Below, one piece after another: positions 7,821 through 43,015 of a stretch of DNA of 64,000 bases (positions are counted from its first letter, which is position 1; each line of letters opens with the position of its first letter). The stretch comes from Xanthomonas tesorieronis (GTDB taxonomy: Bacteria; Pseudomonadota; Gammaproteobacteria; Xanthomonadales; Xanthomonadaceae), in NCBI RefSeq assembly GCF_041245805.1, contig NZ_CP162490.1:347336-411335 (forward strand), read 5' to 3'. The translations under genes and the position numbers were made by a program. A model generated the notes under the pieces. That model was not told the DNA's origin and did no database searches. It worked only from the letters and a program-made list of their open reading frames with translations.

Positions 7821-9083
7821 TCAGCGATGGGCGCGGCCCGGGTCCAGCGCGTCGGCGCCGGGCGCCTGCCGCTGCCGGTGGAACCACGCCACCATCGGCG
7901 AGGCCATCAGCGTGGTGACCAGGGTCATTCCGAATAGCAGGGTGAACAGGTCCGGGCCGATCACGCCGCTGTCCAGGCCGATCTTGATCACCACCAGTTC
8001 CATCAGTCCGCGCGCGTTCATCAGCGAGCCCACGGTCAGGCTGTCGCGCCAGTCGTGGCCGCTCAGGCGCGCGCCCAGCGTGCAGCCGACCAGCTTGCCG
8101 AGCACCGCCACGCCGACCACCAGCACGAAGCCGGCGATGCCGGCACCCGCGAACGCGCTGGGGCTGGTGGCCTGGCCGGCGACCGCGAACAGCACCGGCA
8201 TCAGCAAGGTGATCGCCAGCGGTTCGATGCGCCCCGCCAGGTGTTCCAGCAGGCGGTCCTCGCGCGGCAGGCAGATGCCGAACAGGAATGCGCCGAAGAT
8301 GGCATGCAGGCCGATCCACTCGGCCGCGGCAGCGCAGGCCAGCAGGCCGATCAGCACCCAGACCAGGGCGGTCGGCGCATAGCGGCCATCGTGCGCGCGG
8401 GGCTGCAGCAAGCGCGCGAACGCGGGGCGCAGCACGCCGAACACCACTGCGATCAAAACCAGTGCGCCGAGCGCGGTGAAGCCGACGCCGCCGTGCGCAT
8501 TGCCGCCGGTCAGGGTCAGCACCACGGCCAGGAAGATCCACACGGTGGCGTCGTCGATCACCGCCGCGCCCAGCGCCAGGCGGCCGGCCGGCGTGCGGGT
8601 CATGTTGCGGTCCTTGAGGATGCGCGCCAGCACCGGGAACGCGGTGACCGACATCGCCGCGGCGATGAACAGCGCGAACGGCCAGAAGCCGATGCCGTGC
8701 GGCGCGAAGCGCGGGTACAGCCATGGCGCCGCGGCCAGGCCGAGCAGCAACGGCAGCGCGATCCCGGACAGGCCGACCGCCACCGACGAGCGCACCTGCG
8801 CCCTGGTGCCTTCCGGCGCGCGCAGCTCCACGCCGACAATGAACATGAACAGCACGACGCCGAGGTTGGCCAGCCCGGACAGCGGCGGCAGGCTGACAGG
8901 TGCGAACAACGCGCCGTGCAGGTCCGGCAGCCATGCGCCGAACACGATCGGCCCCAGCAGCAAGCCGGCGGCCATCTCGCCGATCACCGGCGGCTGCCCG
9001 ATGCGCTGCAGCAGCACGCCGCACAGGCGCGCCGCGCCCAGGATCACCGCCAACTGCACCAGCAACAGCGTGGTTGGATTCAT
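7821..9083 (-). CDS. Cation:proton antiporter (CPA2/Kef-type Na+/H+ exchanger family)
   Basis: About 12 predicted TM segments. The N-terminus (LLLVQLAVILGAARLCGVLLQRIGQPPVIGEMAAGLLLGP) is typical of CPA2. Confidence 0.85.
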   Translation of the reverse strand: MNPTTLLLVQLAVILGAARLCGVLLQRIGQPPVIGEMAAGLLLGPIVFGAWLPDLHGALFAPVSLPPLSGLANLGVVLFMFIVGVELRAPEGTRAQVRSSVAVGLSGIALPLLLGLAAAPWLYPRFAPHGIGFWPFALFIAAAMSVTAFPVLARILKDRNMTRTPAGRLALGAAVIDDATVWIFLAVVLTLTGGNAHGGVGFTALGALVLIAVVFGVLRPAFARLLQPRAHDGRYAPTALVWVLIGLLACAAAAEWIGLHAIFGAFLFGICLPREDRLLEHLAGRIEPLAITLLMPVLFAVAGQATSPSAFAGAGIAGFVLVVGVAVLGKLVGCTLGARLSGHDWRDSLTVGSLMNARGLMELVVIKIGLDSGVIGPDLFTLLFGMTLVTTLMASPMVAWFHRQRQAPGADALDPGRAHR

Positions 9084-9334
9084 CGCCTCAGCCCTTCCCC
9101 TGGATCGAATCGGCGTGCACGTCAGGACGCGCGCGGTGTGCGCGTTCGTCGCCCCCTCCCCCTGCTGCGCCGGTCGAGCGGACCGAGAGGCGCAGCGTGC
9201 GATCAGTCTATGCCGATCGCCGCGCGCGAGTCAGCCGCTGCGGCGGACCGGGAACCCTGTCTCGGCTTCACGTGGATGCGGGCTGCCTCTGCCGGCCGAA
9301 ACACTGCGCTGCCGATACGCGCCGTAGGCACGGA

Positions 9335-10303
9335 TCAGCGCTCCGACGGCCCGCTCTCGTCGTAGCCGCGCGGGGTGAACAGGTCCGGCTGGATCAGTTC
9401 GATGAAGGCGCGCGCCTGCGGCGACAGGAACTTGCCTTTGCGCACCACCACGCCATAGCTGCGCGTGGGGAAATAGTCGCCGAGCGAGCGCGTGGCCAGC
9501 TTGCCGCGGTCGGCCTCGGTGACGCAGATCGAACTGACGATGGAGATGCCCATGCCCATCGCCACGTATTGCTTGATCACCTCCCAGCCGCCCACTTCCA
9601 GCGCCACGGTGTAAGGCACCCGCGCCTGCTGGAACACCAGGTCGACCAGGCGGTAGGTCACCTGGCGCTTGGGCGGCAGGATCAGCGGATACGGCGACAG
9701 GTCGTGCAGGCTGAGCTTGGGCGTGTTCGCCAGCGGGTGGTCGCGCGGGGCGATCAGTAATTGCTCGAAGCGGTACACCGGCGCATAGCTGAGGTCGGCC
9801 GGCACGTCGAGCATCGAGCCGACCGCCAGGTCCACCGCGTCCTCGCGCAGCAGCTCGGTGCCGTCGGCGCTGATCGCGTTGTGCAGGGTCAGGCGCACGT
9901 CCGGGTGGCGCGCGCGGAAGTTCTCCACGATCTTCGGCAGCAGGTACAGGATGGTGGAACTGTTGGCGGCGATGTTGAGTTCGCCGGCATCCAGCCCGCG
10001 CGCCTTCTCGCGGAAATCGGCCTCCAGCCGGTCCAGGCTTTCCACCAGCGGCTGTGCCATTTCGTACAGCAGTTGGCCCTCGCGGCTGGGGATCAGGCGC
10101 CGCCCGCTGCGCTCCAGCAGGACCACGCCCAGCTCGCGCTCCAGCGCCTGCAGTTGCAGGGTCACCGCCGGCTGGCTGACGAACAGCGCCTCCGCCGCCC
10201 GTGAGACCGAGCCCAGGCGTACGGTCTGGCAGAACGCGCGCAGCGGCTTCAGCCGGTCGGATTTGTAAGGAAAACGCGGAGTTGCGGTGCCGCGCGTGGC
10301 CAT
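9335..10303 (-). CDS. LysR family transcriptional regulator (divergent from aceBA)
   Basis: N-terminal LysR HTH (LRAFCQTVRLGSVSRAAEALFVSQPAVTLQLQALE) and a substrate-binding domain. Confidence 0.85.
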   Translation of the reverse strand: MATRGTATPRFPYKSDRLKPLRAFCQTVRLGSVSRAAEALFVSQPAVTLQLQALERELGVVLLERSGRRLIPSREGQLLYEMAQPLVESLDRLEADFREKARGLDAGELNIAANSSTILYLLPKIVENFRARHPDVRLTLHNAISADGTELLREDAVDLAVGSMLDVPADLSYAPVYRFEQLLIAPRDHPLANTPKLSLHDLSPYPLILPPKRQVTYRLVDLVFQQARVPYTVALEVGGWEVIKQYVAMGMGISIVSSICVTEADRGKLATRSLGDYFPTRSYGVVVRKGKFLSPQARAFIELIQPDLFTPRGYDESGPSER

Positions 10304-10411
10304 GGCGTGACAAATATAAGGTGGACTTATTTAATGCATTGATAAAACTGTATTGTCAAATACATGCCGCGGAAGCACGGTGAGGGCCCGGAAACACCGA
10401 GGAACCCCACC
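10304..10411. promoter_or_regulatory. Divergent lysR/aceB promoter region with a candidate LysR box
   Basis: An AT-rich patch in otherwise GC-rich DNA. TTTAATGCATTGATAAA contains the palindrome AATGCATT in a T-N11-A-like arrangement. Confidence 0.35.
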
Positions 10412-12055
10412 ATGTCCGCCGCCGCCTTCGCCGCTTCATCCCCGTCCGCCGACCGCTCCACCCCCGGCATCACCCTGACCGCCGCCCTGGCCGGCCAGGA
10501 CGCGCTCCTGCCGCCGGCGGCGCTGGCCTTGCTGGTGTCGCTGCACCGGGCGATCGAACCCGAGCGACAGGCGCGGCTGGCAGCACGCCGCGAACGCCAG
10601 GCCTATTTCGATGGCGGCGGCCTGCCCGACTTCCGCGCCGACACCCAGGCGATCCGCGACGGCGACTGGCGTGTGGCGCCGCTGCCGGCCGCGCTGCAGG
10701 ACCGCCGCGTCGAGATCACCGGCCCGACCGATCCGAAGATGGTCATCAACGCGCTGAACTCCGGCGCCAAGGTGTACATGGCCGATTTCGAGGACTCGAC
10801 CGCGCCGACCTGGCGCAACCTGGTCGCCGGGCAGCGCGCGCTGGCCGAGGCGGTGGCTGGCACGCTGACCTTCAGCGCGCCGCCGGCGCGCGACGGCAGC
10901 CCGGGCAAGCGCTACGCGCTCAAGCCCTACGACGAACAGGCGGTGCTGATCGTGCGCCCGCGCGGTTGGCATCTGGACGAGAAGCACGTGCTGGTCGACG
11001 GCCAGCCGCTGGCCGGCGGCCTGTTCGACGCGGCGCTGTTCGCCTTCCACAACGGCCGCGCGCTGCAGGCCAAGGACCGCGGCCCGTACCTGTACCTGCC
11101 CAAGCTGCAATCGATGGAAGAGGCCGCGCTGTGGGAGGCCGCGCTGTCGCACATCGAGGCGATGCTGGGCCTGCCGCAGGGTCAGATCAAGGTCACCGTG
11201 CTGATCGAGACGCTGCCGGCGGTGTTCGAGATGGACGAAATCCTGCATGCGCTGCGCGAGCGCATCGTCGGCCTGAACTGCGGCCGCTGGGACTACATCT
11301 TTTCCTATCTGAAGACCTTCCGCCGCCACCCCGACCGGGTGCTGCCCGAGCGCGGCCAGGTGACCATGACCCAGCCGTTCCTGAAGGCGTATTCGGAACT
11401 GCTGATCCGCACCTGCCACCGCCGCGGCGCGCATGCGATGGGCGGCATGGCCGCGCAGATCCCGATCGGCCACGACGAGGCGGCCAACGAACAGGCGATG
11501 GCGCGGGTGCGCGCGGACAAGCTGCGCGAAGTCACCGCCGGTCACGACGGCACCTGGGTCGCGCATCCGGCGCTGATCCCGATCGCCCGCGCCATCTTCG
11601 ACGAACACATGCGCGCGCCGAATCAGCACGACGTGCGCCGCGAAGACGTGCAGGCCGATCGCGACACGCTGATCGCGCCGTCCGCCGGCACCATTACCCG
11701 CGCCGGCTTCGAGGGCAACATCGAAGTGTGCGTGCGCTACCTGGCGGCGTGGCTGGACGGCAACGGCTGCGTGCCGATCCACCACCTGATGGAAGACGCG
11801 GCCACTGCCGAGATCAGCCGCAGCCAGCTATGGCAGTGGTTGCACGTGGGCGGCCTGCACCTGGACGACGGCACCGCGATCGACTTCGCACTGTTCGACG
11901 CCTGCATGCGCCAGCTGCCGGCGCGCCTGGGCGAACGCGCGCTGCTGCCCGGCGGCACGCGCCTGGACGACGCCATCGCGCTGCTGGACACGCTGACCCG
12001 CAGCGACGAGCTGGCCGAATTCCTGACCTTGCCGGCTTACCAGATGATCGATTGA
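10412..12055 (+). CDS. aceB: Malate synthase A
   Basis: NCGRWDYIFS signature and the overall malate synthase A fold. The start was chosen at MSAAAF. Confidence 0.9.
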   Translation: MSAAAFAASSPSADRSTPGITLTAALAGQDALLPPAALALLVSLHRAIEPERQARLAARRERQAYFDGGGLPDFRADTQAIRDGDWRVAPLPAALQDRRVEITGPTDPKMVINALNSGAKVYMADFEDSTAPTWRNLVAGQRALAEAVAGTLTFSAPPARDGSPGKRYALKPYDEQAVLIVRPRGWHLDEKHVLVDGQPLAGGLFDAALFAFHNGRALQAKDRGPYLYLPKLQSMEEAALWEAALSHIEAMLGLPQGQIKVTVLIETLPAVFEMDEILHALRERIVGLNCGRWDYIFSYLKTFRRHPDRVLPERGQVTMTQPFLKAYSELLIRTCHRRGAHAMGGMAAQIPIGHDEAANEQAMARVRADKLREVTAGHDGTWVAHPALIPIARAIFDEHMRAPNQHDVRREDVQADRDTLIAPSAGTITRAGFEGNIEVCVRYLAAWLDGNGCVPIHHLMEDAATAEISRSQLWQWLHVGGLHLDDGTAIDFALFDACMRQLPARLGERALLPGGTRLDDAIALLDTLTRSDELAEFLTLPAYQMID

Positions 12056-12175
12056 ACGTCGGGATTGGGGAGTCGGGATTGGGGATTCGCAAGAGCGGAT
12101 TTCCATCCTTCCCCCGAGTCGACCGCAACACCTCCACCGTTTCATCGCCGTATCCATTTCCGAGGAGAACGCAAG

Positions 12176-13471
12176 ATGAGCACCACGTTGCAGACCGCCG
12201 AACAGATCCAGCACGCCTGGGATACCGATCCGCGCTGGGCGGGGATCACCCGCAACTACACCGCCGCCGACGTGGTGCGCCTGCGCGGCACCGTGCACGT
12301 GGAGCATTCGCTGGCCCGGCTCGGTGCCGAGAAGCTGTGGAAATACCTGCACGAAAAGGACTTCGTCAACGCGCTGGGCGCGCTGACCGGCAACCAGGCG
12401 ATGCAGCAGGTCAAGGCCGGACTCAATGCGATCTACCTGTCCGGCTGGCAGGTCGCCGCCGATGCCAACCTGGCCGGGCAGATGTATCCGGACCAGTCGC
12501 TGTACCCGGCCGACTCGGTGCCGGCGGTGGTCAAGCGCATCAACAACACGCTGCTGCGCGCCGACCAGCTGCACCACGCCGAAGGCAAGGACGAGATCGA
12601 CTTCCTGCAGCCGATCGTGGCCGATGCCGAGGCCGGTTTCGGCGGCGTGCTCAACGCCTTCGAACTGATGAAGGCGATGATCGAGGCCGGCGCCGCCGGC
12701 GTGCATTTCGAAGACCAGCTGGCCTCGGTGAAGAAGTGCGGGCACATGGGCGGCAAGGTGCTGGTGCCGACCCGCGAGGCGATCGAGAAGCTCAACGCCG
12801 CGCGCCTGGCCGCCGACGTGCTGGGCGTGCCGACCCTGCTGGTCGCGCGCACCGACGCCGAGGCCGCCGATCTGGTGACCAGCGACATCGACGCCAACGA
12901 CCGCCCGTTCACCACCGGCGAGCGCACCGTCGAAGGCTTCTTCAAGACCCGCAAGGGCCTGGACCAGGCGATCAGCCGCGGCCTGGCCTACGCGCCCTAT
13001 GCCGATCTGATCTGGTGCGAGACCGGCAAGCCGGACCTGGAATTCGCGCGCAAGTTCGCCGAGGCGATCCACGCCAAGTTCCCGGGCAAACTGCTGGCCT
13101 ACAACTGCTCGCCGAGCTTCAACTGGAAGAAGAACCTGGACGACGCGACCATCGCCACGTTCCAGAAGGAAATCGCGCGTTACGGCTACAAGTTCCAGTT
13201 CATCACCCTGGCCGGCTTCCACGCGCTGAACTACTCGATGTTCAATCTGGCGCACGGCTATGCGCGCCGGCAGATGAGCGCCTTCGTCGAGTTGCAGGAA
13301 GCCGAGTTCGCCGCCGCCGACCGCGGCTTCACCGCGGTCAAGCACCAGCGCGAGGTCGGCACCGGCTACTTCGACGCGGTGACCCAGGCGATCCAGCAGG
13401 GCCAGTCCTCCACCACCGCACTGAAGGGCTCGACGGAAGAAGAGCAGTTCCACGGCGAAAAGGCCGCCTGA
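12176..13471 (+). CDS. aceA: Isocitrate lyase
   Basis: KKCGHMGGK catalytic motif; 431 aa; start ATG at 12176. Confidence 0.9.
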
Positions 13472-13517
13472 CCTGCAGCCAGGCGTCCATTGCTTGCCGA
13501 TCCCCATGGGAGGGGAG

Positions 13518-13543
13518 AGCCCGGGTTCGCCCGGGCTTTTTTT
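13518..13543 (+). terminator. Rho-independent terminator after aceA
   Basis: GC hairpin AGCCCGGGTTCGCCCGGGCT followed by T7. Confidence 0.7.
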
Positions 13544-13760
13544 GCATGCGCGGTGGCGCGCGTGTCGGCGGCGGTCCTGTGTCTACCAGGTGCGACAGGA
13601 CAGGTGCGGCGTCGCCGTACCGTTCGGCGCCATGCCGATTTCAGGTCCTTTTGCCGTCTCCGCCCGAGCGAGATTGGCTGTGATCCCATCGGCGGCGATG
13701 CGCTCAGATGCTATGCTTTGCGCAAGATGGCGGGCGACGCCAGGAGCAGTAGGGGGCTGG

Positions 13761-14807
13761 ATGAGCTGCGACAGCGCCGCGTCCAATGCACGCGAGACAA
13801 TTCCGACGGTTGCTGTGGTTGCCCCCAAGCCCAATGAGCTGACGGTGCTGACCGCGGCGGAGTTGCGTCTGTTTTCCGAGTTCGGCCGCGCGCGCAGCGT
13901 GCGCGCCGGCGACGTGCTGTTCCGGCGCGGCGACGGCGGCAGCGCCATGTTCGTGATCAGCAGCGGCGTGATCGATCTGGATTTCGGTGAGGACCTGGTC
14001 GTCAAACATCTCGGACACGGCGAATTCTTCGGCGAACTCGGCCTGCTGATCGGCAACCACATGCGCAGCGCCGACGCCATCGCCGCCAGCGACGGAGTGC
14101 TGGTGGAACTGGACCACGACGATTTCCAGCGCCTGGTGGAGCGCGATCCGGGGCTGGTCGCCTACTTCCTGCGCCGTACCATCATGCGCGTGGTGATGAA
14201 CGAACAGACCCTGATCCGCCAGTTGCGCCGCCGCAACCACGACCTGGAAGCGGCGCTGGACAATCTGTACGCCACCACCCACCAGCTCACCCAGACCGAA
14301 GAGCTGGTGCGCACCGACGAGCTGACCGGCCTGCACAACCGCCGCGGGCTGATCCTACGGCTGCAGGAATGCCGCCGCGACGGCCGTTCGCCGGGTCCGG
14401 GCCTGCTGCTGATCGACTGCGACCGCTTCAAGCGCATCAACGACGAGCACGGCCATCTGGTCGGCGACCGCGTGCTGCAGAACGTCGCCAACATCCTGCG
14501 CTCCGTCGCCGGCCAGGACGACATCGCCTGCCGCCTCGGCGGCGACGAATTCTGCCTGCTGGTGTCCACCGGCAACGCCGACGATCTGCGCCGCATCGGC
14601 GAGTTCGTGATCGCCACGGTGCAGAACCTGCTCGGCGTGCCGCACCCGTTGCCGCACATCTGCCCGGTCAGCATCGGCATCAGCCGGGTCGATCCGCAAT
14701 CGGACTGGAACGACTGGTACGCCAATGCCGATGCCGCGCTGTACGAGGCCAAACGTCTCGGTGGCAACCGCTTGTATTGGCACGACCTCGCCTCCGGCTC
14801 GCACTGA
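13761..14807 (+). CDS. cNMP-binding domain plus GGDEF diguanylate cyclase (XC_0249-like)
   Basis: CAP-family cNMP-binding motifs (FGELGLL, RSA) are followed by GGDEF (GLHNRRG, GGDEF). The start at 13761 lies after the aceA terminator; 13698 is an alternative. Confidence 0.8.
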   Translation: MSCDSAASNARETIPTVAVVAPKPNELTVLTAAELRLFSEFGRARSVRAGDVLFRRGDGGSAMFVISSGVIDLDFGEDLVVKHLGHGEFFGELGLLIGNHMRSADAIAASDGVLVELDHDDFQRLVERDPGLVAYFLRRTIMRVVMNEQTLIRQLRRRNHDLEAALDNLYATTHQLTQTEELVRTDELTGLHNRRGLILRLQECRRDGRSPGPGLLLIDCDRFKRINDEHGHLVGDRVLQNVANILRSVAGQDDIACRLGGDEFCLLVSTGNADDLRRIGEFVIATVQNLLGVPHPLPHICPVSIGISRVDPQSDWNDWYANADAALYEAKRLGGNRLYWHDLASGSH

Positions 14808-14833
14808 GCCCACCAAGAACCCTCGAGCTGCCC

Positions 14834-17431
14834 ATGAACGACGTCCACCAGCCGCAGCCCGACGCCCCGCAACTGCGGACGCTGCTGCTGACCGACCTGT
14901 GCGATTCGATGGCGCTGGTGGAACGGCTGGGCGACACCAACGCCGCCGAGCTGTTCAAGCTGCACGACTCGCTGGTGTTGGAACTGCAACAGCGCTGGCG
15001 TGGGCGCCTGATCGACCGTTCCGACGGCCTGCTGTTGCTGTTCGAGCGGCCGATCGACGGCCTCGGTTTCGCCCTGGACTACAGCCGCGGCCTGCGCGAG
15101 TTGGGCGCGCAGCGCAACCTGGAACTGAAAGTGCGCGCCGGCCTGCACGTGGGCGAGGTGCTGACCTGGCGCAACAGCGATGCCGCGGTGCAGGTCGGCG
15201 CCAAGCCGCTGGAAGTGGAGGGCCTAGCCAAGCCGACCGCGGCGCGGCTGATGACCCTGGCCCGGCCCGGGCAGATCCTGCTGTCGGCGGTGGCCGAATC
15301 GCTGACCCACCGCGCCGCGCGCGAACTGGGCGAGCGCGGCGAGCGCCTGCTGTGGAAGTCGCACGGCCGCTGGCGCTTCAAGGGCGTGCCGACGGCGCAG
15401 GAGATCTACGAAGTCGGCGAGATCGGCAACACCCCGTTGCGCGCGCCGAAACCGACGCCGAAGGCATGGCGGGACATCCCGCTGTGGCGGCGTCCGGCGG
15501 CGCTGCTGGCCGAGGCCGGCCTGATCGCCGCGGTCGCGGTCGGCGTCTGGTTCGCCACCCGTCCGCAGCCGGCCATCGCCTTCGCCGAGCGCGACTGGGT
15601 GGTGGTGGGGGATCTGCGCAATCTGACCGGCGACACGCTCTACGACGATACGATCGAGACCGGGCTGCGCATCAGCCTGGAACAGTCGCGCTACGTCAAT
15701 GTGCTGGCCGATGCGCGCGTGCGCGAGGCGCTGAAGATGATGCAGCGCGACCCCGGCGTTGCCGTGGATCGCAAGCTCGGTGCGGAAATCGCCCAGCGCA
15801 CCGGCGCGCGCGCCTTGTTGCTGCCCACCGTTTCCGACGCGGACGGAAAGGTGCGGATCAGCATCGAAGTGGTCGATCCGGCCACGGAAGCCACGGTCGT
15901 CACCGAGTCCGCGACGGCGCGCGGCCCGGGATCGGCGGTGGCGGCGTTGGGCGAGGCCGGCGACTCGTTGCGCAAGGCGTTCGGCGAGAGCGTGGCGTCC
16001 ATCAAGAAGAGTTCGGCTCCGCTGGAGCGGGTAACCACCGACAAGCTCGATGCGCTGCGTGCGTTCTCGCTGGGCCAGAAATCATTTGCGGAGCAGAATC
16101 TGCCAGCGGCGGAAATGCAGTTCAGGCAGGCGCTGAACCTCGACCCGAACTTCGCCATGGCCAAGATCGGCCTGGCGCGCGTGGCCTACAACAAGACCGA
16201 CGTGTTCAGCGCGCAGCAGCAAATGGCCATGGCGATCGGGGATACGGGCAGGCTGACCGACCGCGAACGGCTCTATGCGATGGCGCAGATGGCGCTGTTC
16301 CGATGGGAAAAGGATTATCCCGGCAAGTGGGTCGCCCTGTCGTCCCTGTATCCGGATTATCACGTGGCCGCCTTCAATGTGGCGTCCAGCATGCGCGACG
16401 GTGCACGCTTCAAGGAGATGTTCGAATACAGCGACCGCGCTTCGGCAACGCAGGCCGTTACCCGTCCGGTCGCACTGACTTTCAGGGCGATCGCACGCTC
16501 GGCCTTGGGCAACGTGGCCGAGGCCGAACGCGACTATCTCCAGGCCGAAGCCTTGGGTTACCGCAAGAATTCCGTCGAGTTTTCGCTGATCAAGGCCGCC
16601 GAATCGAAGTTCAAGGAAGCCGACGCGATGTTGCGTCCGGTTCCCGGAGAGCCGCCATTCGCGAAGAACGAGCGCGCCGCCGCGAACCTCAACGTGATGG
16701 CCGATCAAGGCGAGTGGGACAAGGCCGCGCAGCAGGCCGACGCGCTCAGGGCTGCGGTTGCCGATCCGCATACGCCGTTCGAATGGGGCGCGCGGACCTC
16801 CGCGCTGGCGATCATGCGCCATACCTCCGACAGAAAGGCGGTTGTGCGGGAAGCGCAGACGCTGGTGACGCTGGCGGACAACGGCCTGCACAACAGCGCG
16901 GGCCGGGCGCAGGAAGCGGTGGCGAACGCGGCGCTCTATGCGGGCTATGTCGCGGCGTGCGAAGGCGATATCGCCACCGCCCAGCGTGCCTTGAAAGTGG
17001 CCAAGCCGATCGCCGACATCGCCCCCTATCCTCTGCTGAAGAATTCTTCGGCCATCGTCGAGGCCCGGATCGCGATGCGGTCGGGAAAGCCCGACGCAGC
17101 GCTGGAAATCCTGAAACCCTTCGATCAGCCCTGGGCGCTGACCTTGACCAAGGTCGAGCGGCTATCCGCCGAGGCGGCGCTGGGTCGGGATGTGGGCGAG
17201 CAACTCGCCGCCATGAAAACGGTGGCCTGGCGCGGTCGCGTCTATGCCGAATGGGCGGCCGAACGGCCGCCCGTGATCGAATCGCTGTCGTCGCTGCAGC
17301 AACTCAGCGACAAAAAACCACCCAGCCAAGGCTCGCTTCGAACTGCTTCGCCAGAAGGTCCAGATTCGCTTCGATCTCTTCCTTGCTCGGGAGATTCACG
17401 CTCTCGGGCAAAATGCTCGGATCGAGGTTGA
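14834..17431 (+). CDS. Class III nucleotide (adenylate/guanylate) cyclase domain protein with a TM segment and C-terminal TPR-like repeats (XC_0250-like)
   Basis: N-terminal CHD motif LLLTDLCDSMALVERLGD matches the FTDIVGFT box of class III cyclases, followed by a TM helix and TPR-like helical repeats. The frame stays open to 17431 and overlaps the convergent small ORF. Confidence 0.75.
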   Translation: MNDVHQPQPDAPQLRTLLLTDLCDSMALVERLGDTNAAELFKLHDSLVLELQQRWRGRLIDRSDGLLLLFERPIDGLGFALDYSRGLRELGAQRNLELKVRAGLHVGEVLTWRNSDAAVQVGAKPLEVEGLAKPTAARLMTLARPGQILLSAVAESLTHRAARELGERGERLLWKSHGRWRFKGVPTAQEIYEVGEIGNTPLRAPKPTPKAWRDIPLWRRPAALLAEAGLIAAVAVGVWFATRPQPAIAFAERDWVVVGDLRNLTGDTLYDDTIETGLRISLEQSRYVNVLADARVREALKMMQRDPGVAVDRKLGAEIAQRTGARALLLPTVSDADGKVRISIEVVDPATEATVVTESATARGPGSAVAALGEAGDSLRKAFGESVASIKKSSAPLERVTTDKLDALRAFSLGQKSFAEQNLPAAEMQFRQALNLDPNFAMAKIGLARVAYNKTDVFSAQQQMAMAIGDTGRLTDRERLYAMAQMALFRWEKDYPGKWVALSSLYPDYHVAAFNVASSMRDGARFKEMFEYSDRASATQAVTRPVALTFRAIARSALGNVAEAERDYLQAEALGYRKNSVEFSLIKAAESKFKEADAMLRPVPGEPPFAKNERAAANLNVMADQGEWDKAAQQADALRAAVADPHTPFEWGARTSALAIMRHTSDRKAVVREAQTLVTLADNGLHNSAGRAQEAVANAALYAGYVAACEGDIATAQRALKVAKPIADIAPYPLLKNSSAIVEARIAMRSGKPDAALEILKPFDQPWALTLTKVERLSAEAALGRDVGEQLAAMKTVAWRGRVYAEWAAERPPVIESLSSLQQLSDKKPPSQGSLRTASPEGPDSLRSLPCSGDSRSRAKCSDRG

Positions 17432-17540
17432 ATCCATATTCGGCGAACGCCGCGGCAGGATTCTGTTCCATGGCAGCGCGGAAGGCATCGTCGCTGGCGA
17501 GGCGTTGCAGCAGGGACCGTGCATTATCTAGTGTGGTCAT
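17304..17540 (-). CDS. Candidate RiPP precursor peptide (78 aa) with a Nif11/NHLP-like helical leader and a short hydrophobic C-terminus ending GWVVFCR
   Basis: Lies 24 nt downstream of the SagB-type dehydrogenase on the same strand. Its composition is typical of a RiPP leader (LLQRLASDDAFRAAMEQNPAAAFAEYG). Local GC is lower than the flanks. Confidence 0.55.
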   Translation of the reverse strand: MTTLDNARSLLQRLASDDAFRAAMEQNPAAAFAEYGFNLDPSILPESVNLPSKEEIEANLDLLAKQFEASLGWVVFCR

Positions 17541-17564
17541 TTAGTTTGCGCTCGTGGATGGTTT

Positions 17565-18779
17565 TTATTGCCCAAGTGATTGATGCGTCGCGATCAACGG
17601 CTTGGGATTCAAGTGTAGCGTGTTTTTCGTGGCATCAATGTTGCCGACGCCGTTGGCGCCGATCACCATCGTCGTGAGCGGGTCCAGCGACAGCAGCCGG
17701 CCTGCATCGATATCGTTGATGGCGGCCGTATAGAAGGCGCCGAGATCGCGTTCCGTCGCCAGCAGGTAGAACGTCTGGCTCAGGTGGCCGGAGTCCAGCA
17801 GCACCGCCTTGTAGGCCTTGGGGTGACGGCGGTATTTCCAATGGTGCCGATCCAGCCGCGCGACATGGAAGACGAGCGCGCTGGAGTCGGCGAAGTAGGT
17901 TTGTCCGATGGTCAGGTCGGCGGCCAGCGTTCTGGCTTCGGCCTCGGTCAGGTCGATTATCTTGACGAGCCTGTGGGCATCGGATTCGTAGTGATAGAAC
18001 CCCGGCGCCAATCCTTCCACATCGATTATCAAGGGGTATGCCTCGATCGGGTGCAACGACCCGCCGGAAGGGCTGGTGCGGCGTACGGCGACATGACCGG
18101 GTGCGATTTCCTCGGCCCCGATCGCGCCGAACGTACCGAACAGCATGCGCGACAATTCGGTCAGGGCGAGTGGGCGCGTCCGATCGAAATGCCGGGTGGT
18201 GCGCCTGGCAAGCAGGACATCGGCAACGTCGCCTTGCAGCGTTTCGGTGGGAAGCGGGACCGCACCGATCCCGTCCTCGCGCTTCGGGAAATGCGGGGGA
18301 AGCGGGCCATACGTGGCAATGTGCTTGTCCAGCCGCGCGCGCTCGGCCGCATTCCCGTGCTCGCGGCTGCCTTCGTCGCCGACCACGCCCGACCACGCGC
18401 TCATGCGGTGATAGACGCTGGCCAGCGGATGCCACCCCACGGTTTCGAGCGTCGCCTGGCCGGCCAGGATGGCGGCGCTTGTGCTGTCCGGAACGTCGCA
18501 AAGCACGATTTCGTCCGCGATCATCCTGTCGATGAAGGCGGCATCGCAATTGTGCTTTTGCATGACCTCGCCAGCTTCGGTCCAGGAATTCCCCGGAAGC
18601 GAGGCGACGATGGCCAGCGCCTCGGGCGAAAGCGGAATGCGTTTGCCGCTGAGGGGGCACAGCAGGGCGGTGGCGATGCTGGTATCGAGGACGACCGAGC
18701 CGTTGAGCAGCGCGCTGATATTGGGGAAGAGCACATCCCCGATTTCGATGATGCAGTGAAGTCTTCGGCGTAATTTCAT
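17565..18779 (-). CDS. SagB-type (McbC-like, nitroreductase-fold) peptide-maturation dehydrogenase
   Basis: ARRTTRHF (the RxSxRxF box), SPSGGSLHPIEAYPL, and KAVLLDSGHLSQTFYLLATERDLGAF, with an N-terminal extension of about 170 aa. The start was chosen at MKLRRRL; the ORF is open to 18875. Confidence 0.8.
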   Translation of the reverse strand: MKLRRRLHCIIEIGDVLFPNISALLNGSVVLDTSIATALLCPLSGKRIPLSPEALAIVASLPGNSWTEAGEVMQKHNCDAAFIDRMIADEIVLCDVPDSTSAAILAGQATLETVGWHPLASVYHRMSAWSGVVGDEGSREHGNAAERARLDKHIATYGPLPPHFPKREDGIGAVPLPTETLQGDVADVLLARRTTRHFDRTRPLALTELSRMLFGTFGAIGAEEIAPGHVAVRRTSPSGGSLHPIEAYPLIIDVEGLAPGFYHYESDAHRLVKIIDLTEAEARTLAADLTIGQTYFADSSALVFHVARLDRHHWKYRRHPKAYKAVLLDSGHLSQTFYLLATERDLGAFYTAAINDIDAGRLLSLDPLTTMVIGANGVGNIDATKNTLHLNPKPLIATHQSLGQ

Positions 18780-19344
18780 CTGGATGGGTTTGATCGCTGA
18801 CGGTAATGCGGACGAAGTTGACAGACCTGGCGCTGTGTCGCGCGTAAGGGCGGACCGATGACGTATCGTTTCCACCGTTCAAGTCTTGTGCGCTGGCATG
18901 CGATCAGTATGCCGAAGGAAATGGCCGCGGCGTGGCCGTTGCGACAGTTGATCGGCATCCACCCTGGCTTGCCGCACGACCGGCCATCGGGTGCGGGGAC
19001 GAGTGCGCCGGTTTAGGTCCCGGATCGTGTCGCCATGCGGTATCGGAAGCGGGGTGCCCCGCACCGGCCGACGAAGTGGACAGCGCATGCAGCGGGCACG
19101 GATCCGTTGCGCCAAGAGCCGCTGGTGGTCTGCGGCTTCGGTTGGCCGGCGCCGGCGTTGACCACCACGGAGTTAGATCCGACCGATGCGGTGTGGCAGG
19201 CCAGCGACTCCCCATGCTCCGACAAGTACGCGTAGCAGTGGTAAGGCATCTCCCGTCAGCGTCAGCGCGGATGCCGCAGCACTGCGGCTGCGCCGCTGTA
19301 GTCGCGTTGCCGTCTGGCGCTAGTCGCTGCCGTGTTCAGCGGCC

Positions 19345-20151
19345 CTAGCGGTGCGCCGTTGCGGTTGCAGCCGCGGTCGCTTCGTCGGATGCCGCCGATT
19401 TGGCCGGCTTGTCGGTGTGTTCGAGCAGATCCAGGCGCTTGCCGCCCGGCAGCCGGTAGTCCAGTTGCTGCTCCAACGCATCGAGCTCTTTGACCTGCAC
19501 GCACAGCGCGTTGGCCCTGGCTTCCAGCACCTTGCCACGTGCCTCCATGCGCCGCTCCATGTCCTTCTCCATCGCGTCGGCACGTTTATCGATGTCGTCG
19601 GCGCGGCCGGTGAACACCGCGAACATCACCCCGCGGGTCAGCGCGCCGGCCATTTCCTCGGCGGCAGCGCTGACGTCGGCTTCGAACGCCTTGTCGAACG
19701 GTTCCTTCTGCCATTGGCCTTTGCCGAGCGTGCGATCGAGGTGGGCGAGGGCGTCGTCGCGGTGCCGCTCGATCTCGCGCGCCTTGCTGCGGCTGCCGGT
19801 GAGCGCTTCGACCACACCGCCCAAGGCGTCGAAGGTGATGCCGACCACTTCGCGGGCGATGCTTGCCACCTCGGGCATCAGTGTCTGGGCACCCTGTTCC
19901 ATCTGCCGCACGCGTTGGACGTCGGCACTGCTGAGCGGCTGCGCGACCCCGTCCACCTGCAGGCGTCCGTCGTGCAGGAACACGCTCTTCGGGGTGCCGG
20001 CGCTGCGGGTCAGGGCGACGCCGGTCCTGTCGACGATGACGTCGTAAGGCGTGGAGAAGCCGCATTGCTGCGAGGAGAACTGCGGGCCGGCGCTGGCGCT
20101 TGCGGCGGCGCCGAGCAGGGAGAGGGTGCAGACGGAAAGCAGCAGGCGCAT
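19345..20151 (-). CDS. Secreted hypothetical protein (DUF2884/YggN-like)
   Basis: N-terminal signal peptide with a charged, helical periplasmic body; 268 aa. Confidence 0.55.
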   Translation of the reverse strand: MRLLLSVCTLSLLGAAASASAGPQFSSQQCGFSTPYDVIVDRTGVALTRSAGTPKSVFLHDGRLQVDGVAQPLSSADVQRVRQMEQGAQTLMPEVASIAREVVGITFDALGGVVEALTGSRSKAREIERHRDDALAHLDRTLGKGQWQKEPFDKAFEADVSAAAEEMAGALTRGVMFAVFTGRADDIDKRADAMEKDMERRMEARGKVLEARANALCVQVKELDALEQQLDYRLPGGKRLDLLEHTDKPAKSAASDEATAAATATAHR

Positions 20152-32932: not shown

Positions 32933-33009
32933 TGGTTCTCGGAGCGGGAATCGAACCCGCAACCCTCGGATTAAGTTTCCGATGCTCTAACCAATTGAGC
33001 TATCCAAAA
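32933..33009 (-). tRNA. tRNA-like gene, best read as tRNA-Lys(CUU), with non-canonical features
   Basis: Manual cloverleaf fold: D arm GCTC-AATTGGTTA-GAGC; anticodon arm TCGGA-AACTTAA-TCCGA; T arm GCGGG-TTCGATT-CCCGC; encoded CCA. U1-A72, two G-U pairs in the acceptor stem, and A instead of U at position 33. Confidence 0.5.
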
Positions 33010-33010
33010 G

Positions 33011-33076
33011 CGACGTGCCGGAGTCGAACCGGCGACCAGTGGACAAGCCACCGCTCTACCTCTGAGCTAACGTCTG
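33011..33076 (-). tRNA. Degenerate tRNA-like sequence (probable pseudo-tRNA)
   Basis: Good D arm (GCTC-AGAGGTA-GAGC) and T arm (GCCGG-TTCGACT-CCGGC). The anticodon region is 3-4 nt too short to fold, and acceptor pairing is imperfect. Confidence 0.3.
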
Positions 33077-33921
33077 GTGGAACTGCGCGTCCCGGCCGCA
33101 GGCATACGCGACGGCAGCGCCGTGCGCACCGGACGGGATGGCATCCCGTACCGCTAGCGGCCATTAAGTGCAGTTTCCCATTGCCGTCTCCTTCGAAACG
33201 GCAAATTCTGCGTCGATTCCATTCCCGCCGCCCGCGTCCGGCACCTGGACGCAGCGCTTGTGCGCCTCACGAGCGAAACTTCCCTGTTTCCGGGCATTCC
33301 ATGCCCGGGTGCCTTGGGATTTTGAATCGACAAAACAAAAAAACATACGAACGCGCAAAGCAAAACGCCCCCGGCATGGTGTCCGAGGGCGTTCGCGTTC
33401 CTCGGAGATCGATGCAACCGATCTCCGCAACGGGCGATCAGTCGATCAGGTGGTGGGATCCAGCCGCAGCGCGGTATCGCACAGCGCACGCAGTGCCGCT
33501 GCGCGCGTTTCGCGCTGCAGGCTGGGCAGATGTGCGTTGAAGGGTCGGAAGTTCATGGTCGTCTGATTCGTCGCTGCCGAACGTGTCGGCTGATGGGCGC
33601 GCACATTACCCGTGTTGTTTTCATTGCGCAAGAGGTTTGTCGAATTATTTTTATCGCGTCGATGTCGATCGCGCGCCTTCCTCGGCCGAAAGATTCGCAG
33701 TGGCCGGGAAGGCATTTCCAATTCTGGTGTTTTGGTTACTGTGGGCGGCTGCTCAGAGCGGGAAGATTTATCGATGCATCGTCGAATTTTCTCTGGCGAT
33801 CGCCGCTCTGGCGCAATGCGCGCTGATAGGCTCGCGCTGCGTCTTCCGTCAGCCAGACACTTACTTTCCGGTTGCTGGATGGCGCCTGCGATCAAGTCAC
33901 TTCCCCGACGGAGTCATCGAA

Positions 33922-34410
33922 ATGAAAATTCGCCTGCATGCCTCTCTGCTCGCATTGCTGCTCGTGCTTCCCGTTGCTTCGGCATTCGCGCAAACCGCGG
34001 TCACCGCCAATCCCAACCACCAGCAGCTGCTGCAGGGATCGGATTGGCGTACCGAGGCGAACAAGCGCCTGGTCTACGACTTCTGGCGCATCGTGTTCGA
34101 AGCCGGGCACACCGAGTACGCGCCGATGTACATGGCCAAGGACTACATCCAGCACAATCCGACCGTGGCCAACGGCCGCGATGCGTTCCTGCAGTTTCTG
34201 ACCGCCTTCGTCAAACCGCAGCCGATCAAGCCGCGGGTGCAGCTGCCGCTGGTGGCGATCCTCGCCGAGGGCGATTACGTGACCCTGGTATCGGTGCGCA
34301 CGCTGCCCGACCCCAAGGACGCGACCAAGACCTATACGACCACCTGGTTCGACATGTTCCGCATCCACAACGGCAAGATCCAGGAGCATTGGGACCCGGC
34401 GACCAAGTGA
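33922..34410 (+). CDS. Secreted NTF2-like/SnoaL-like family protein
   Basis: Signal peptide MKIRLHASLLALLLVLPVASAFA followed by an NTF2-like fold of about 140 aa. The upstream 340 bp of the ORF is non-coding. Confidence 0.6.
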   Translation: MKIRLHASLLALLLVLPVASAFAQTAVTANPNHQQLLQGSDWRTEANKRLVYDFWRIVFEAGHTEYAPMYMAKDYIQHNPTVANGRDAFLQFLTAFVKPQPIKPRVQLPLVAILAEGDYVTLVSVRTLPDPKDATKTYTTTWFDMFRIHNGKIQEHWDPATK

Positions 34411-34664
34411 CCTCGGCCGCGACGTAGGCCGCCGCGGTGCCGTCGTCGCTGCAGCGGTGCCGCGGCGATGGCGCGGCGCGGCCTGCGCGCAATCGGCCGT
34501 CGCGTTGGTGCGTTGGTCCGGCCGGATGCCCTGTGTCCGGGCATGCGCCGCGCAGCAGTGTTCCGCTGCGCGCCGGCCTGGTGTGCCGACGGGGCACGAG
34601 GAGGCTAGACTCCAAGGGCGGCCGACGGTCGCGCGCGCCTCCTTCACCAGCCGACATCGCCGCC

Positions 34665-39928: not shown

Positions 39929-40322
39929 GGGCGTCCCTACTGGCAGGAATAAGGGCTGCAGTGTCCCTCGGGTTCCGTATAGACCGTGTTAGCGCGGCGG
40001 CGTGGAGTCGTCTGCCGGCTGAATGCGCGGGCGGTTCGGATGCGGCGTGTGCTGCGATTGCCGCAGTGGGGGTCTCTGGAGGGACGGCGTGCCGGTGCTG
40101 GCCGCTTTGCCGCACGCGACGCTGGCCGGTCATCGGTCGCGCCGAGCCCGTCGGCCTTCGCCATCCATGGCCAGCCGCGGGTAACGCGGCGCTCGCCGGG
40201 ATCCGTGCCGGGCGCGCTCGCAGGATCCGGGCAGAAGCGCGGCATGAGGCGGCACGTCCTGCTCGCCGCTGTCGCGCGGCTCCAATGGCTGCGACCCCGC
40301 GGCACGGCGGGCAATGCACCGC

Positions 40323-42904
40323 TCAGGTGCCGCGTGGCTTGGCGCGATGGCTGGCGGTGGCGGTCCACGGATCGTCCGGCCACGGGTGGCGGGGATAGCG
40401 GCCCTTCATTTCCTTCTTCACTTCCGGATAGGTGCTGGACCAGAAGTTGCGCAGGTCCTGGGTCACCTGCAGCGGGCGCCCGCCCGGCGAGAGCAGGTGC
40501 AGCAGCAGCGGCACGCGGCCGTCGGCGACGCGCGGGGTGTCGGCCAGGCCGAACAGTTCCTGCAGCTTCACCGCCAGCACCGGCGGTTGCGCCTGGCCGG
40601 CGTGGTCGAGCGCGTAGTCGATGCGCCGCTCCATGCCCGAGGGCACGCTGATCCGCGTCGGCGCATGCCGATCGACGGCCTGCCGCTGGTCCCATGGCAG
40701 CAGCGACTTCAGCGCCTCGCCCAGCTCGTCTTCGCCCAGCGCGTCGAGCCGGGTCTTGCCGGCAAAGGCCGGTCGCAGCCAGCCGTCCAGGGTTTCCAGC
40801 AACGCCGCGTCGCCGAGATCGGGCAATCCCAGCTCCGGCATCCATGTGCGCAGTGCGACCACGCGCGCGCGCCACTGGGTCAGCGGCTCGCTCCACGGCA
40901 GCGCCTGCAGGCCGAGTTCGCGCACCGCCTCGGTCAGCGCCGCTGCCGCATGCGCCGGATCGACGCGGCCGGCGGGGCGGCTGTCGAGCACGATGCGGTC
41001 GAAGCGGGTTTCGCGCAGCGCGCTCAGCGCGCGCCGTTCGGCGTCCCAGCGCACCACGTCCTGCTGCACGAAGCGCTGCGGGAAATCCGCGCGCAGCCGC
41101 GCCTCGTCCACCGGCGCGGCGCGCAGCAGCAGCGCGTCCTTGGCTTCGTAGCGCAGTTCGGTGGCGACCAGCCACGGCTCGCCGCGCAGGTCGCTGTGCT
41201 CGAACAGGCGTGCGCTGCGGCCGTTGGCCAGCAGATAGCGCAACGGATCGGCCGGATGCCGGGTGGCGATGCGGTCGGGGAAGGCATGGGCGAGCAGGTC
41301 GCCCAGTTCGTGCGCTTCCACGCTGTCCGGCGCGGCGGCGTCGCTGCGCAGGCGCCGCCGCCACTGCTTGGCCGCCGCGTCGATCGCGGCCAGGCCGCCG
41401 CGGTTGGCGTCGTGCGGGGCGCGGCCGCGGCGGAACCCGGCCAGTGCGCGCCAGCGCGCCGCCAGCGCGTCGCCGCCCTGACGCAACGGGTCGCGCGCCT
41501 CGACCAGCGCGGCCAGGTCGCAGGCCAGCGCCTGCGCCCGTGGGTCCGGCGCAGCCAGCAACATCGCCGCCAGTCGCGGGTGGGTGCCCAGCGCGAGCAT
41601 GCGCCGCCCGTTCGCGGTGATCGCATGGTTCTCGCTCAAGGCGCCCAGCCGCTGCAGCAGTTCGCGCGCGGCGGCCAGCGCGCCGGGCGGCGGCGGATCG
41701 ACGAAGCGCAGCGTGTCGCTGCCCCAGGCCGCCAGTTCCAGCGCCAGCCCGGCCAGTTCCACCTGCAGCATTTCCGCGCGTCGCTGCGCCTCCAGGCGCT
41801 GCGACTGCGGCCACAGCCGGTAGGCCCAGCCGGAGGCGACACGGCCGGCGCGGCCGGCGCGCTGGTCGGCCGAGGCCTGGGCGATGGCGGTGACGTCCAG
41901 CCGCGAGAAGCCGCTGTTGGGGTCGTAGTGCGGCTCGCGCGCCAGGCCGGCGTCGATCACCACGCGCACGCCGGGCAGCGTCACCGACGATTCGGCCACG
42001 TTGGTCGCCAGCACCACGCGGCGGCGGCCGTGCGGATCGGGCTGCAACACCTTGCTCTGCTGCTCGACCGGCAACTCGCCATGCAACGGCAACACGTCGA
42101 CACCGTTCCCTTCTCCCCCCGGGAGAAGGTTGCGCGCAGCGCCGGATGAGGGTACGGCAGAAGCGGTGCCTGACGGCGCACCCGACCCCACCCCGGCCGC
42201 CTCCAACGCCGCCTGCACCCGCGCGATCTCGCGCTGTCCGGGCAGGAACACCAGCACGTCGCCGGGATGCTGTTGCAGCGCGTGCTCGACCGCGCGGCGG
42301 GTCTGCGCTTCCAGCGCCTCGTCGCGCCGCGCCGGGAAATGCGCGATCTCCACCGGATAGCTGCGGCCGGCACTGGACAGGCGCGGCGCGTCCAGGAACT
42401 GCGCCAGGCGTTCGCCGTCCAGCGTCGCCGACATCACCACGATGCGCAGGTCCTCGCGCACCTGCGCCTGCACGTCCAGCGCCAGCGCCAGGCCCAGGTC
42501 GGCGGCCAGATGGCGTTCGTGGAATTCGTCGAACAGCAGCGCACCGACGCCGTCGAGCATCGGATCGTCCTGGATCATCCGGGTCAGGATGCCCTCGGTG
42601 ACCACTTCGATGCGGGTGCGCGCGGAGACCTTGTTCTCGAAGCGGATGCGGTAGCCCACGGTCTCGCCCGGCGCTTCGCCGCGCTGCCTGGCCATGAACG
42701 TGGCGGCGCTGCGCGCGGCGACCCGGCGCGGCTCCAGCATCACGATGCGGCGGCCCTGCAGCCAAGGCGCCTCCAGCAACGCCGGCGGCACCTGGGTGGT
42801 CTTGCCGGCGCCGGGCGGGGCTTCCAGCACCAGCCGCGGATGCGCGGCGAGGCTGTCGCGGATCTGCGGCAGCAGCGGATCGATCGGAAAAGCGGGAGAG
42901 GCCA
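40323..42904 (-). CDS. hrpB: ATP-dependent RNA helicase HrpB
   Basis: DEAH-box helicase motifs (APPGAGKTTQ, DEFHER, SATLD) and the HrpB C-terminal domain; 860 aa. Confidence 0.9.
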
Positions 42905-43015
42905 TCGGCCAAGGATACGGATCGGCTGCGCCGCTGTAGAGCGCAGCCCGCTCGCCGGCAGCGCCGGCCCCGTACAATCTCCGGCTTTGCTGCCCGGCTT
43001 TCTCGGCATTTCCGC

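Follow-up and report, generated by a model that had tools for sequence, protein, structure and literature searches.

The four-gene locus

The DNA analysed here is a stretch of 64,000 nucleotides (nt) from the chromosome of Xanthomonas tesorieronis (contig NZ_CP162490.1), hereafter called the window. Within it, we focus on four adjacent genes encoding a diguanylate cyclase with cNMP-binding and GGDEF domains, a receptor-type class III cyclase, a short precursor-like peptide and a flavin-dependent dehydrogenase. The second half of this unit has a lower GC content than its surroundings, and comparison with related genomes indicates that a conserved signalling half is very probably joined, inside the cyclase gene, to a half that is exchanged as a block between divergent types. 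Here, we present the structure of the locus, its variation across related genomes and a possible role of the peptide as the input signal of the cyclase.

Gene boundaries were set by phase-specific GC content and the lengths of homologues. The first gene (13761..14807, plus strand) encodes a protein of 348 amino acids (aa) with a cNMP-binding domain (PF00027) as well as a GGDEF diguanylate cyclase domain (PF00990). Its open reading frame (ORF) had initially been annotated from 13494; the coding signal is absent before about 13750 and homologues are 347-348 aa long, and the start was moved accordingly to 13761. After 26 nt follows the gene for a class III cyclase of 865 aa (14834..17431, plus strand), which matches TIGR04510 with 943.5 bits (cutoff 400). 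On the minus strand lie the genes for an NHLP-related precursor-like peptide of 78 aa ending in GWVVFCR (17304..17540; TIGR04509, 53.6 bits, cutoff 34) and for a SagB-related flavin mononucleotide (FMN) dehydrogenase of 404 aa (17565..18779; TIGR04511, 303.3 bits, cutoff 240, and TIGR03605), for which homologue lengths favour the ATG at 18779.

The conserved signalling half

The first two genes resemble an adjacent gene pair of X. campestris, XC_0249 and XC_0250. The class III cyclase XC_0250, which carries TPRs, is required for the synthesis of cyclic GMP (cGMP), and its catalytic domain, when isolated, converts GTP to cGMP; XC_0249, with cNMP and GGDEF domains, binds cGMP, which enhances the synthesis of cyclic di-GMP (c-di-GMP), and mutants of either gene lose virulence and biofilm formation (An et al. 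2013, EMBO J, PMC3770947). The same paper calls the TPR domain uncharacterised and leaves a transmembrane (TM) helix of the cyclase undescribed, and XC_0251 did not turn up in a term search of its text.

The window pair shares with XC_0249/XC_0250 the adjacency of the genes, the architectures of both proteins (class III cyclase with TPRs; cNMP with GGDEF) and the six residues essential in XC_0250: D41, D71, L73, A150, L157 and A161 correspond at a unique offset of 7 to D34, D64, L66, A143, L150 and A154, positions that vary little or not at all across 24 related cassettes. The cNMP domain matches PDB chain 5h5o_A (E = 1.2e-46 over 125 residues), which, judging by the sequence match and by the name of the molecule, is presumably the domain of XC_0249. 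X. campestris was not among the 120 matches listed in either protein search; X. maliensis, chosen with the 5h5o sequence, served as a proxy for XC_0249/XC_0250. Its cNMP domain shares 85.6% identity with the 5h5o chain, and its neighbourhood on the side of the isocitrate lyase gene aceA is the same as the window's. The pair thus matches, at the level of sequence, the published pathway from cGMP to c-di-GMP. Orthology with the published work would imply that cGMP rather than cyclic AMP is made at this locus, and that this cGMP activates c-di-GMP synthesis. The cNMP-GGDEF gene is conserved, with 93-97% DNA identity between carriers of different cassette types.

A cyclase gene in two parts

The cyclase gene is a mosaic. 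Its cytoplasmic catalytic domain (aa 11-210; 14864..15463) is conserved, being 90-96% identical to congeneric cyclases of other types and about 80% to those of Lysobacter, and it matches the cyclase domains of Rv1900c and Ma1120 in the PDB. A single TM helix is predicted next (aa 220-242; 15491..15559; Kyte-Doolittle 19-residue maximum 2.04), preceded by a stretch rich in K and R and situated at the same position in type A, the window's type, in type B and in X. maliensis. It forms the left edge of the variable region. Beyond it lies the type-specific sensor domain (aa 245-810; 15566..17263), in which a TolB-N/LpoB-like alpha/beta domain is followed by a TPR superhelix. Its predicted model matches the periplasmic-type folds LpoB, LpoP, TolB-N and PelC as well as TPR superhelices, and this C-terminal part of the protein is predicted to be periplasmic.

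Identity falls sharply along the protein. The nearest cyclases share 95% and 82% identity with that of the window, and those of X. translucens, X. sacchari, X. cerealis and X. sontii are 90-96% identical to it over residues 1-200, 64-75% over residues 200-330, and about 32% and 27% beyond. For the sensor domain, identity to congeneric cyclases is 27-35%, and Lysobacter-type proteins score higher (50% and 40%). At the nucleotide level, identity to the type-1 allele is 0.93-0.98 as far as the catalytic domain reaches and then drops to 0.78 at nt 15480, the start of the TM helix. The boundary of the variable region runs through the cyclase gene, at its TM helix.

Peptide and dehydrogenase

The peptide gene overlaps the final 128 nt of the cyclase ORF in antisense (17304-17431), and the last 55 residues of the cyclase fall outside the TIGR04510 profile match. 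Read in the peptide frame, the overlap shows 16 synonymous and 11 non-synonymous substitutions; read in the frame of the cyclase tail, the counts are 6 and 21, which suggests that the peptide frame is the selected one. Gene callers left the peptide uncalled in the three type A genomes whose gene tables were seen (L083, L085, L086). The peptides have in common an N-terminal NHLP-like helix, a motif reading LPSKEEI or LASKEEI, and a C-terminal tail that is short and hydrophobic, with the sequence GWVVFCR in the window's group and H.VVHCFEAG in several types of layout B. As to the features of NHLP/Nif11-type precursors, a leader-like N-terminus is present (TIGR04509) and the NF038399 score lies below its cutoff; a Gly-Gly motif was not found in the type A peptide, nor a C39-type ABC transporter in the locus. 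At two other loci (L011, 11604-12998; L015, 11694-13081), the peptide gene is present in four tandem copies, flanked by the dehydrogenase and cyclase genes.

The dehydrogenase was modelled with a pLDDT of 86.7, and its nearest solved relatives by both sequence profile and fold are the azoline oxidases ThcOx, BmdC and McbC. A W-K-Y stretch is invariant in the alignment; a Lys-Tyr motif is catalytically important in the dehydrogenases of thiazole/oxazole-modified microcin (TOMM) systems. No signal sequence was found in the protein. A RiPP (ribosomally synthesised and post-translationally modified peptide) recognition element at its N-terminus was considered and rejected: the topology of beta-strands followed by three helices is reminiscent of one, but Foldseek gave only a full-length alignment to ThcOx at modest TM-score.

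The curated name of the cyclase family, 'peptide modification system cyclase', together with the conserved adjacency of the three genes, raises the alternative that the TPR domain is a scaffold in peptide modification and that the cyclase acts in or regulates maturation instead of sensing its product, a role in keeping with the fact that TPR domains commonly hold peptides. The topology of the proteins speaks otherwise. The single TM helix puts the TPR domain across the membrane from the GTP-using cyclase domain, the first subdomain on the TPR side has a periplasmic-type fold, the dehydrogenase lacks a signal sequence, and the counterpart from X. campestris needs no more than its catalytic domain to make cGMP. 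We therefore regard a scaffold role as very unlikely.

Sensor types and their co-variation

The diversity of the variable half was surveyed in 27 cluster representatives with a catalytic domain at least 88% identical to the window's, aligned with MAFFT. They comprise at least eight sensor types, which are 29-54% identical to one another in the sensor compared with 91-98% in the catalytic domain, and the window's type is the most divergent of those in Xanthomonas. Types 1-5 were each confirmed at the same locus with a peptide and a dehydrogenase of their own. A simple picture of two alleles, A and B, was discarded, as layout B itself holds several deeply divergent types; two of its alleles are 94% identical in the catalytic domain and 39%, 38% and 54% in sensor, peptide and dehydrogenase, respectively. 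The other Xanthomonas types match TIGR04509, TIGR04510 and TIGR04511 with higher scores than the window's type does.

Identity matrices from 24 single-cassette loci fall into two blocks. In the conserved block, GGDEF protein and catalytic domain are correlated at r = 0.93. In the variable block, r is 0.91 for sensor and peptide, 0.83 for sensor and dehydrogenase, and 0.85 for peptide and dehydrogenase, and between the blocks it ranges over 0.37-0.67. When the conserved half is controlled for, partial Mantel correlations within the variable block are 0.82-0.85 (p <= 0.0005), and mismatched combinations of sensor, peptide and dehydrogenase were found in none of the 276 pairs.

Replacement at a conserved site

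The divergent cyclases share one chromosomal site, with the genes for LysR, malate synthase, AceA and the GGDEF protein leading up to the cyclase, and those for DUF2884, a sulfate transporter and DUF3182 on the far side. Compared by blastn with the type-1 locus L081, the window is 91.2% identical up to 15987, has no match over 15988-19070 and is again 87-88% identical from 19071, and the flanks of this genome are overall 87-96% identical to the window's. The segment 15988..19070, which shares no detectable DNA homology with the type-1 allele, is therefore taken as the core of the variable, low-GC region. Gene order differs as well: in L081 and L082 the minus strand carries the peptide gene and the plus strand the dehydrogenase gene, and the window's layout, with the dehydrogenase on the minus strand, recurs in L083, L085 and L086 and is inverted relative to the other Xanthomonas types examined. 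Different types occur under one NCBI species label, both in X. translucens (L081 versus the P0001 cluster and L083) and in X. sacchari (L082 versus L085).

An earlier occupant of the site has left a trace in the window. At 19086..19211, on the plus strand and thus opposite to the intact gene, lies a relic of 42 codons from the 3' end of a type-1 dehydrogenase gene (tblastn, 74% identity to residues 351-392 of the 395 in the L081 dehydrogenase, E = 7e-14); the intact window dehydrogenase is merely 32% identical to that of L081. From this relic it follows that the window's cassette displaced one of type 1. A longer relic is present in X. bonasiae (94% over 70 aa), and the 275 bp that hold the relic (18947-19221) occur in the window and in X. 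bonasiae and are absent from the otherwise 96%-identical L083. A different relic is found in Xanthomonas sp. A2111 (L087, 11607-12870), where 77 residues at most 60% identical to any intact type adjoin a remnant of an rve-family integrase. This C-terminal dehydrogenase fragment (83 aa) belongs to a type not seen intact and is a second independent trace of cassette turnover.

The interpretation of the low-GC stretch as horizontally acquired DNA, made in the initial annotation, is supported by the lack of homology to L081 between similar flanks, the relic beside it and the inverted layout. A classical integrative genomic island was nevertheless rejected. No integrase was found in the window locus and no tRNA gene at 8-26 kb, and the repeats flanking the segment are short and imperfect only. 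Replacement through the conserved flanks would fit better than site-specific integration. In the X. sacchari genome L082 (CP191184), the variable region spans 5.5 kb (8921-14404) with 56.3% GC compared with about 70% in the flanks; it holds a second peptide-like ORF on the minus strand (12839-13285), and the DUF2884 gene is missing.

Composition of the variable segment

The lower GC content initially noted between 16.2 and 18.9 kb is confirmed by several measures, although the background lies at a mean of 0.676 over the window and not near 70% as first stated. GC content over 16200-18900 is 0.630, among the lowest 3% of 2.7-kb windows and undercut only at 56.8-58.6 kb, and over the homology-defined 15988-19070 it is 0.633 compared with 0.681 in the left and 0.687 in the right flank. 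That segment also has an atypical dinucleotide signature, with a delta* of 104.6 compared with 54.4 +/- 19.2 over all 3.08-kb windows, which places it in the top 0.4%; the highest values of the entire 64 kb belong to windows beginning at 15251-16251. The two AT-rich strings pointed out initially, AATCCATATTCGGCGAA and GTTTTTATTGCCCAAGTGATTGATG, were located at about 17431-17447 and 17561-17585.

GC content at third codon positions (GC3) follows the same division. It is 0.92 for aceA, 0.87 for the cNMP part, 0.91 for GGDEF and 0.92 for the catalytic part of the cyclase. In the TM/periplasmic part of the cyclase it drops to 0.83, and the dehydrogenase (0.79) and the peptide (0.67) are lower still, in agreement with the three genes or gene parts originally listed as affected (the 3' half of the cyclase, the peptide and the dehydrogenase). 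The step between the catalytic and the TM/periplasmic part places a compositional boundary, too, inside the cyclase gene. Codon usage departs less: measured against the pooled genes, the periplasmic part stands at a distance of 0.094, the dehydrogenase at 0.169 and the short peptide at 0.285, and GC3 across the window genes is 0.839 +/- 0.068. Thus, the expected departure from the flanks holds for GC content and dinucleotide signature, whereas the codon usage of the variable half is only mildly unusual, and the compositional anomaly as a whole is moderate.

Such a moderate anomaly could also arise with no transfer at all, if the lower GC content reflected weaker constraint and codon bias on fast-evolving, weakly expressed and vertically inherited genes. 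The same drop in GC3 is indeed seen in 23 relatives (means of 0.72 for the sensor part, 0.76 for the peptide and 0.78 for the dehydrogenase compared with 0.88-0.90 for aceA, GGDEF and the catalytic domain), the codon usage of the periplasmic part and the dehydrogenase is within the native range, and divergence within type A follows that of the flanks, only faster: the window and X. sacchari L085 are 78-86% identical in the cassette and 90-95% in the flanks. Vertical inheritance, however, leaves unexplained how sensors of 29-54% identity come to stand beside catalytic domains of 91-98% in one genus, why the layout of the window's type is inverted, and why there are dehydrogenase relics and two types in one named species; the incongruence of sensor, peptide and dehydrogenase with the species tree also counts against it. 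Weaker constraint probably contributes to the composition without being the whole story, and as the sole explanation it appears quite improbable to us. The types are old, and are either maintained or exchanged across species.

Synteny and age of the linkage

The age of the linkage was assessed in 80 loci returned by a scan of species-representative genomes with the dehydrogenase profile, onto which the window proteins were mapped. The left neighbour of the unit in the window is aceA (12176..13471, plus strand; NF011645, 813 bits), which adjoins the cNMP-GGDEF gene in those Lysobacterales loci that reach that far. The order aceA, cNMP-GGDEF, cyclase, peptide and dehydrogenase is found at more than 20 Lysobacterales loci from many genera, including X. 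bonasiae, Lysobacter, Novilysobacter, Vulcaniibacterium, Oleiagrimonas, Coralloluteibacterium, Tahibacter, Dokdonella, Rudaea and several metagenome-assembled genomes (MAGs). In X. maliensis (L084) and a gammaproteobacterium (L089, CP069267.1), the four-gene module likewise adjoins aceA, in the same strand arrangement as in L081 and L082 (peptide gene minus, dehydrogenase gene plus), and the right-hand neighbours differ, being a peptidase gene or biotin carboxylase genes. The four genes standing beside aceA throughout Lysobacterales, their linkage is ancient and was not created by an island.

The cyclase, peptide and dehydrogenase genes are adjacent in more than 30 loci, the window copy spanning 14834-18779. 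Betaproteobacterial and other MAGs keep these three without the cNMP-GGDEF gene; alternative cNMP effectors beside the cyclase were looked for in cassettes outside Lysobacterales, and nothing informative was found. Actinobacterial (Actinomycetota), Duganella, Rugamonas and other loci (L030-L080) carry a TIGR04511-like dehydrogenase with or without an NHLP-like peptide and no detectable cyclase, and the peptide-dehydrogenase pair therefore also exists outside a cGMP context. In six loci (L013, L014, L016, L027, L044, L069), two sets of cyclase and dehydrogenase genes stand in tandem, so some genomes carry two cassette versions side by side.

These results bear on the explanation originally offered, namely that a foreign peptide/dehydrogenase island had newly landed beside an unrelated cNMP/c-di-GMP pair, joining the two, with the peptide as an output under cyclic-nucleotide control. 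Its compositional premise is sound, as both the low GC content and the atypical dinucleotide signature are real, and the segment does lack a DNA match at the corresponding locus of a close relative. The co-location of the four genes in relatives, on which it was proposed to be checked, is indeed seen, yet in so many Lysobacterales loci that the synteny largely refutes a recent joining. Further, the cyclase itself belongs to the peptide cassette by its curated family (TIGR04510), the boundary lies inside the cyclase gene, the site had earlier been occupied by a different version of this cassette, the integrase, tRNA target and flanking repeats of an island are missing, and divergence within the type tracks that of the species, so that the event was not recent. 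Control of the peptide by cyclic nucleotides is possible in itself, and a peptide acting upstream of the cyclase fits the co-variation of peptide and sensor better. We consider the recent-island explanation highly improbable.

Proposed mechanism

We propose that the conserved four-gene signalling unit has an exchangeable 'specificity' half, represented here by the low-GC segment, and that the matured peptide is a type-specific ligand of the cyclase, and we put the probability of this reading as a whole at about 0.55. Its structural and evolutionary part, in which the conserved half is joined at the TM helix to a sensor, peptide and dehydrogenase half exchanged as a block, is held with high confidence. 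Its ligand-receptor part, in which the dehydrogenase-matured peptide would be the type-specific ligand of the sensor domain, is more tentative and is offered as possible rather than probable.

Under this proposal, the dehydrogenase would modify the peptide in the cytoplasm, and the modified peptide would reach the periplasm and be recognised by the matching TPR sensor domain. Recognition would set the activity of the guanylate cyclase, the resulting cGMP would activate the cNMP-GGDEF enzyme, and c-di-GMP would in turn control biofilm and virulence traits. A broader form of the proposal is that, in xanthomonads and their relatives, a self-made, dehydrogenase-modified peptide is the extracellular ligand of a receptor guanylate cyclase, and that ligand, sensor and maturation enzyme diversify jointly into mutually exclusive 'pherotypes', which gate cGMP, c-di-GMP, biofilm and virulence by strain type. 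In this generality the idea is doubtful, and we put it forward as a speculation.

Several observations weigh against the proposal. The peptide is conserved over its whole length, and its alignment has no universally conserved Cys, Ser or Thr as a target for modification; the sole Cys of the window peptide is C-terminal and is replaced by M, K, H, R or T in other lineages. The 'peptide' might instead be a small folded protein. Neither an exporter nor a signal peptide or leader protease was found in or beside the cassette, which leaves the route of a cytoplasmic peptide to a periplasmic domain unexplained. A YcaO-type cyclodehydratase was not found between aceA and the sulfate transporter gene in the window and L081-L089, where the Pfam tables give a nitroreductase-family protein only; because this partner is missing and the peptide has no conserved heterocyclisable residue, the chemistry of the dehydrogenase is left unassigned. 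Exchange must be infrequent on short timescales, since divergence within the window's type roughly tracks species divergence. Sensor domains generally evolve faster than catalytic domains, and a block that is swapped whole could show co-variation through physical linkage alone, so that co-variation does not prove contact between peptide and sensor. Finally, orthology with XC_0250 rests on residue mapping, domain architecture, the conserved neighbourhood and the X. maliensis proxy.

Some of these points would be accommodated if the block were swapped jointly and the peptide were no ligand of the cyclase, being for example an antagonistic or otherwise secreted product, with the surface-exposed sensor diversifying separately in response to cues from a host or plant, pressure from phages or immunity, or the product of a competitor. 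Such an arrangement is consistent with a co-variation confounded by linkage, with the lack of an evident exporter or cleavage site, with the generic nature of the TPR fold matches and with the distant taxa that keep dehydrogenase and peptide without a detectable cyclase. It sits less easily with the left boundary at the TM helix, which is seen at the nucleotide level in one type comparison and agrees with the domain-wise identities of the other types, so that the sensor travels with the peptide and dehydrogenase. It would also have to account for the absence of any mismatch among the 276 pairs, and for a three-gene association that reaches into betaproteobacterial and other MAGs and is curated as one system. 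We regard a non-ligand role of the peptide as unlikely, though it deserves serious consideration.

Relation to known systems and significance

Two sets of components brought together here were already known, the published cGMP pathway and a curated cassette. The latter consists of TIGR04509 ('NHLP-related RiPP peptide'), TIGR04510 ('putative peptide modification system cyclase') and TIGR04511 ('putative peptide maturation dehydrogenase'), and all three window proteins score above the cutoffs and are adjacent. These family names predict peptide modification and make no link to the cGMP work, the cNMP-GGDEF gene or allelic replacement, and the window's type differs further in its inverted layout and in the overlap of the peptide gene with the cyclase ORF. 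What appears to be new is the unification of the two, the multi-allelic replaceable block and a candidate input to the pathway. In the searchable literature we found no mention of the TIGR accessions, of the family names in this context, of XC_0251/XC_0252 or of sensor hypervariability.

The proposed ligand-receptor arrangement has parallels in other systems. In pherotype loci such as agrBDCA of Staphylococcus and comQXPA of Bacillus, a hypervariable modifying enzyme, peptide and receptor sensor part lie beside a conserved signalling part. The present locus resembles them in its hypervariable, co-varying block, in the boundary within the receptor gene and in the occurrence of several types per species (by NCBI labels), and by analogy the peptide may activate the cyclase in a type-specific manner. 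It differs from them in that the receptor would signal through cGMP made by a class III cyclase and not through a histidine kinase, that the modifier is a SagB-like flavoprotein and that an exporter is not evident. The logic is also reminiscent of the animal receptor guanylate cyclases GC-A (natriuretic-peptide receptor) and GC-C (guanylin/STa receptor), which are activated by peptides: a domain outside the cell is linked by one TM helix to a class III cyclase inside it, which yields cGMP in response to a peptide. The extracellular domains are unrelated, however, the bacterial protein has no kinase-homology domain, and its ligand is a candidate only. As for the dehydrogenase, its closest solved relatives are the azoline oxidases (SagB, McbC, ThcOx, BmdC) of TOMM, cyanobactin and nonribosomal peptide synthetase (NRPS) pathways; in contrast to TOMM systems, the window locus is without a YcaO/cyclodehydratase and its peptide without a core rich in Cys, Ser and Thr.

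Virulence and biofilm formation in Xanthomonas are influenced by the cGMP pathway, and the peptide is a concrete candidate for the so far unidentified input signal of that pathway. The connection made here between the XC_0249/XC_0250 pair and a peptide cassette known from annotation only was not found in the searchable literature. If the proposal is true, the cyclase would be, to our knowledge, the first peptide-gated receptor guanylate cyclase in bacteria, and the locus would constitute a strain-type recognition system in important plant pathogens. The results also matter for annotation, as the peptide gene is missed in the three type A genomes with gene tables at hand and the name 'peptide modification system cyclase' hides a published guanylate cyclase function.

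Neighbouring genes and other features of the window

To the right of the cassette, a spacer of 565 nt separates the dehydrogenase gene from a DUF2884 gene (19345..20151, minus strand; PF11101), which is the right neighbour in most of the clade-1 Xanthomonas loci examined (present in L001, L081, L083, L086 and L088). Rfam gave no match at 12-21 kb with E <= 0.1, and promoter and terminator scans were at chance level. Elsewhere in the window, GC content dips more deeply but over shorter distances than in the variable segment at 33000-34500 (0.596-0.616) and 59000-60000 (0.57), and the second most atypical dinucleotide signature lies at 49.5-50.3 kb. The region 40300-43050 is very GC-rich (0.75-0.76) and is covered by an ORF of 906 aa on the minus strand.

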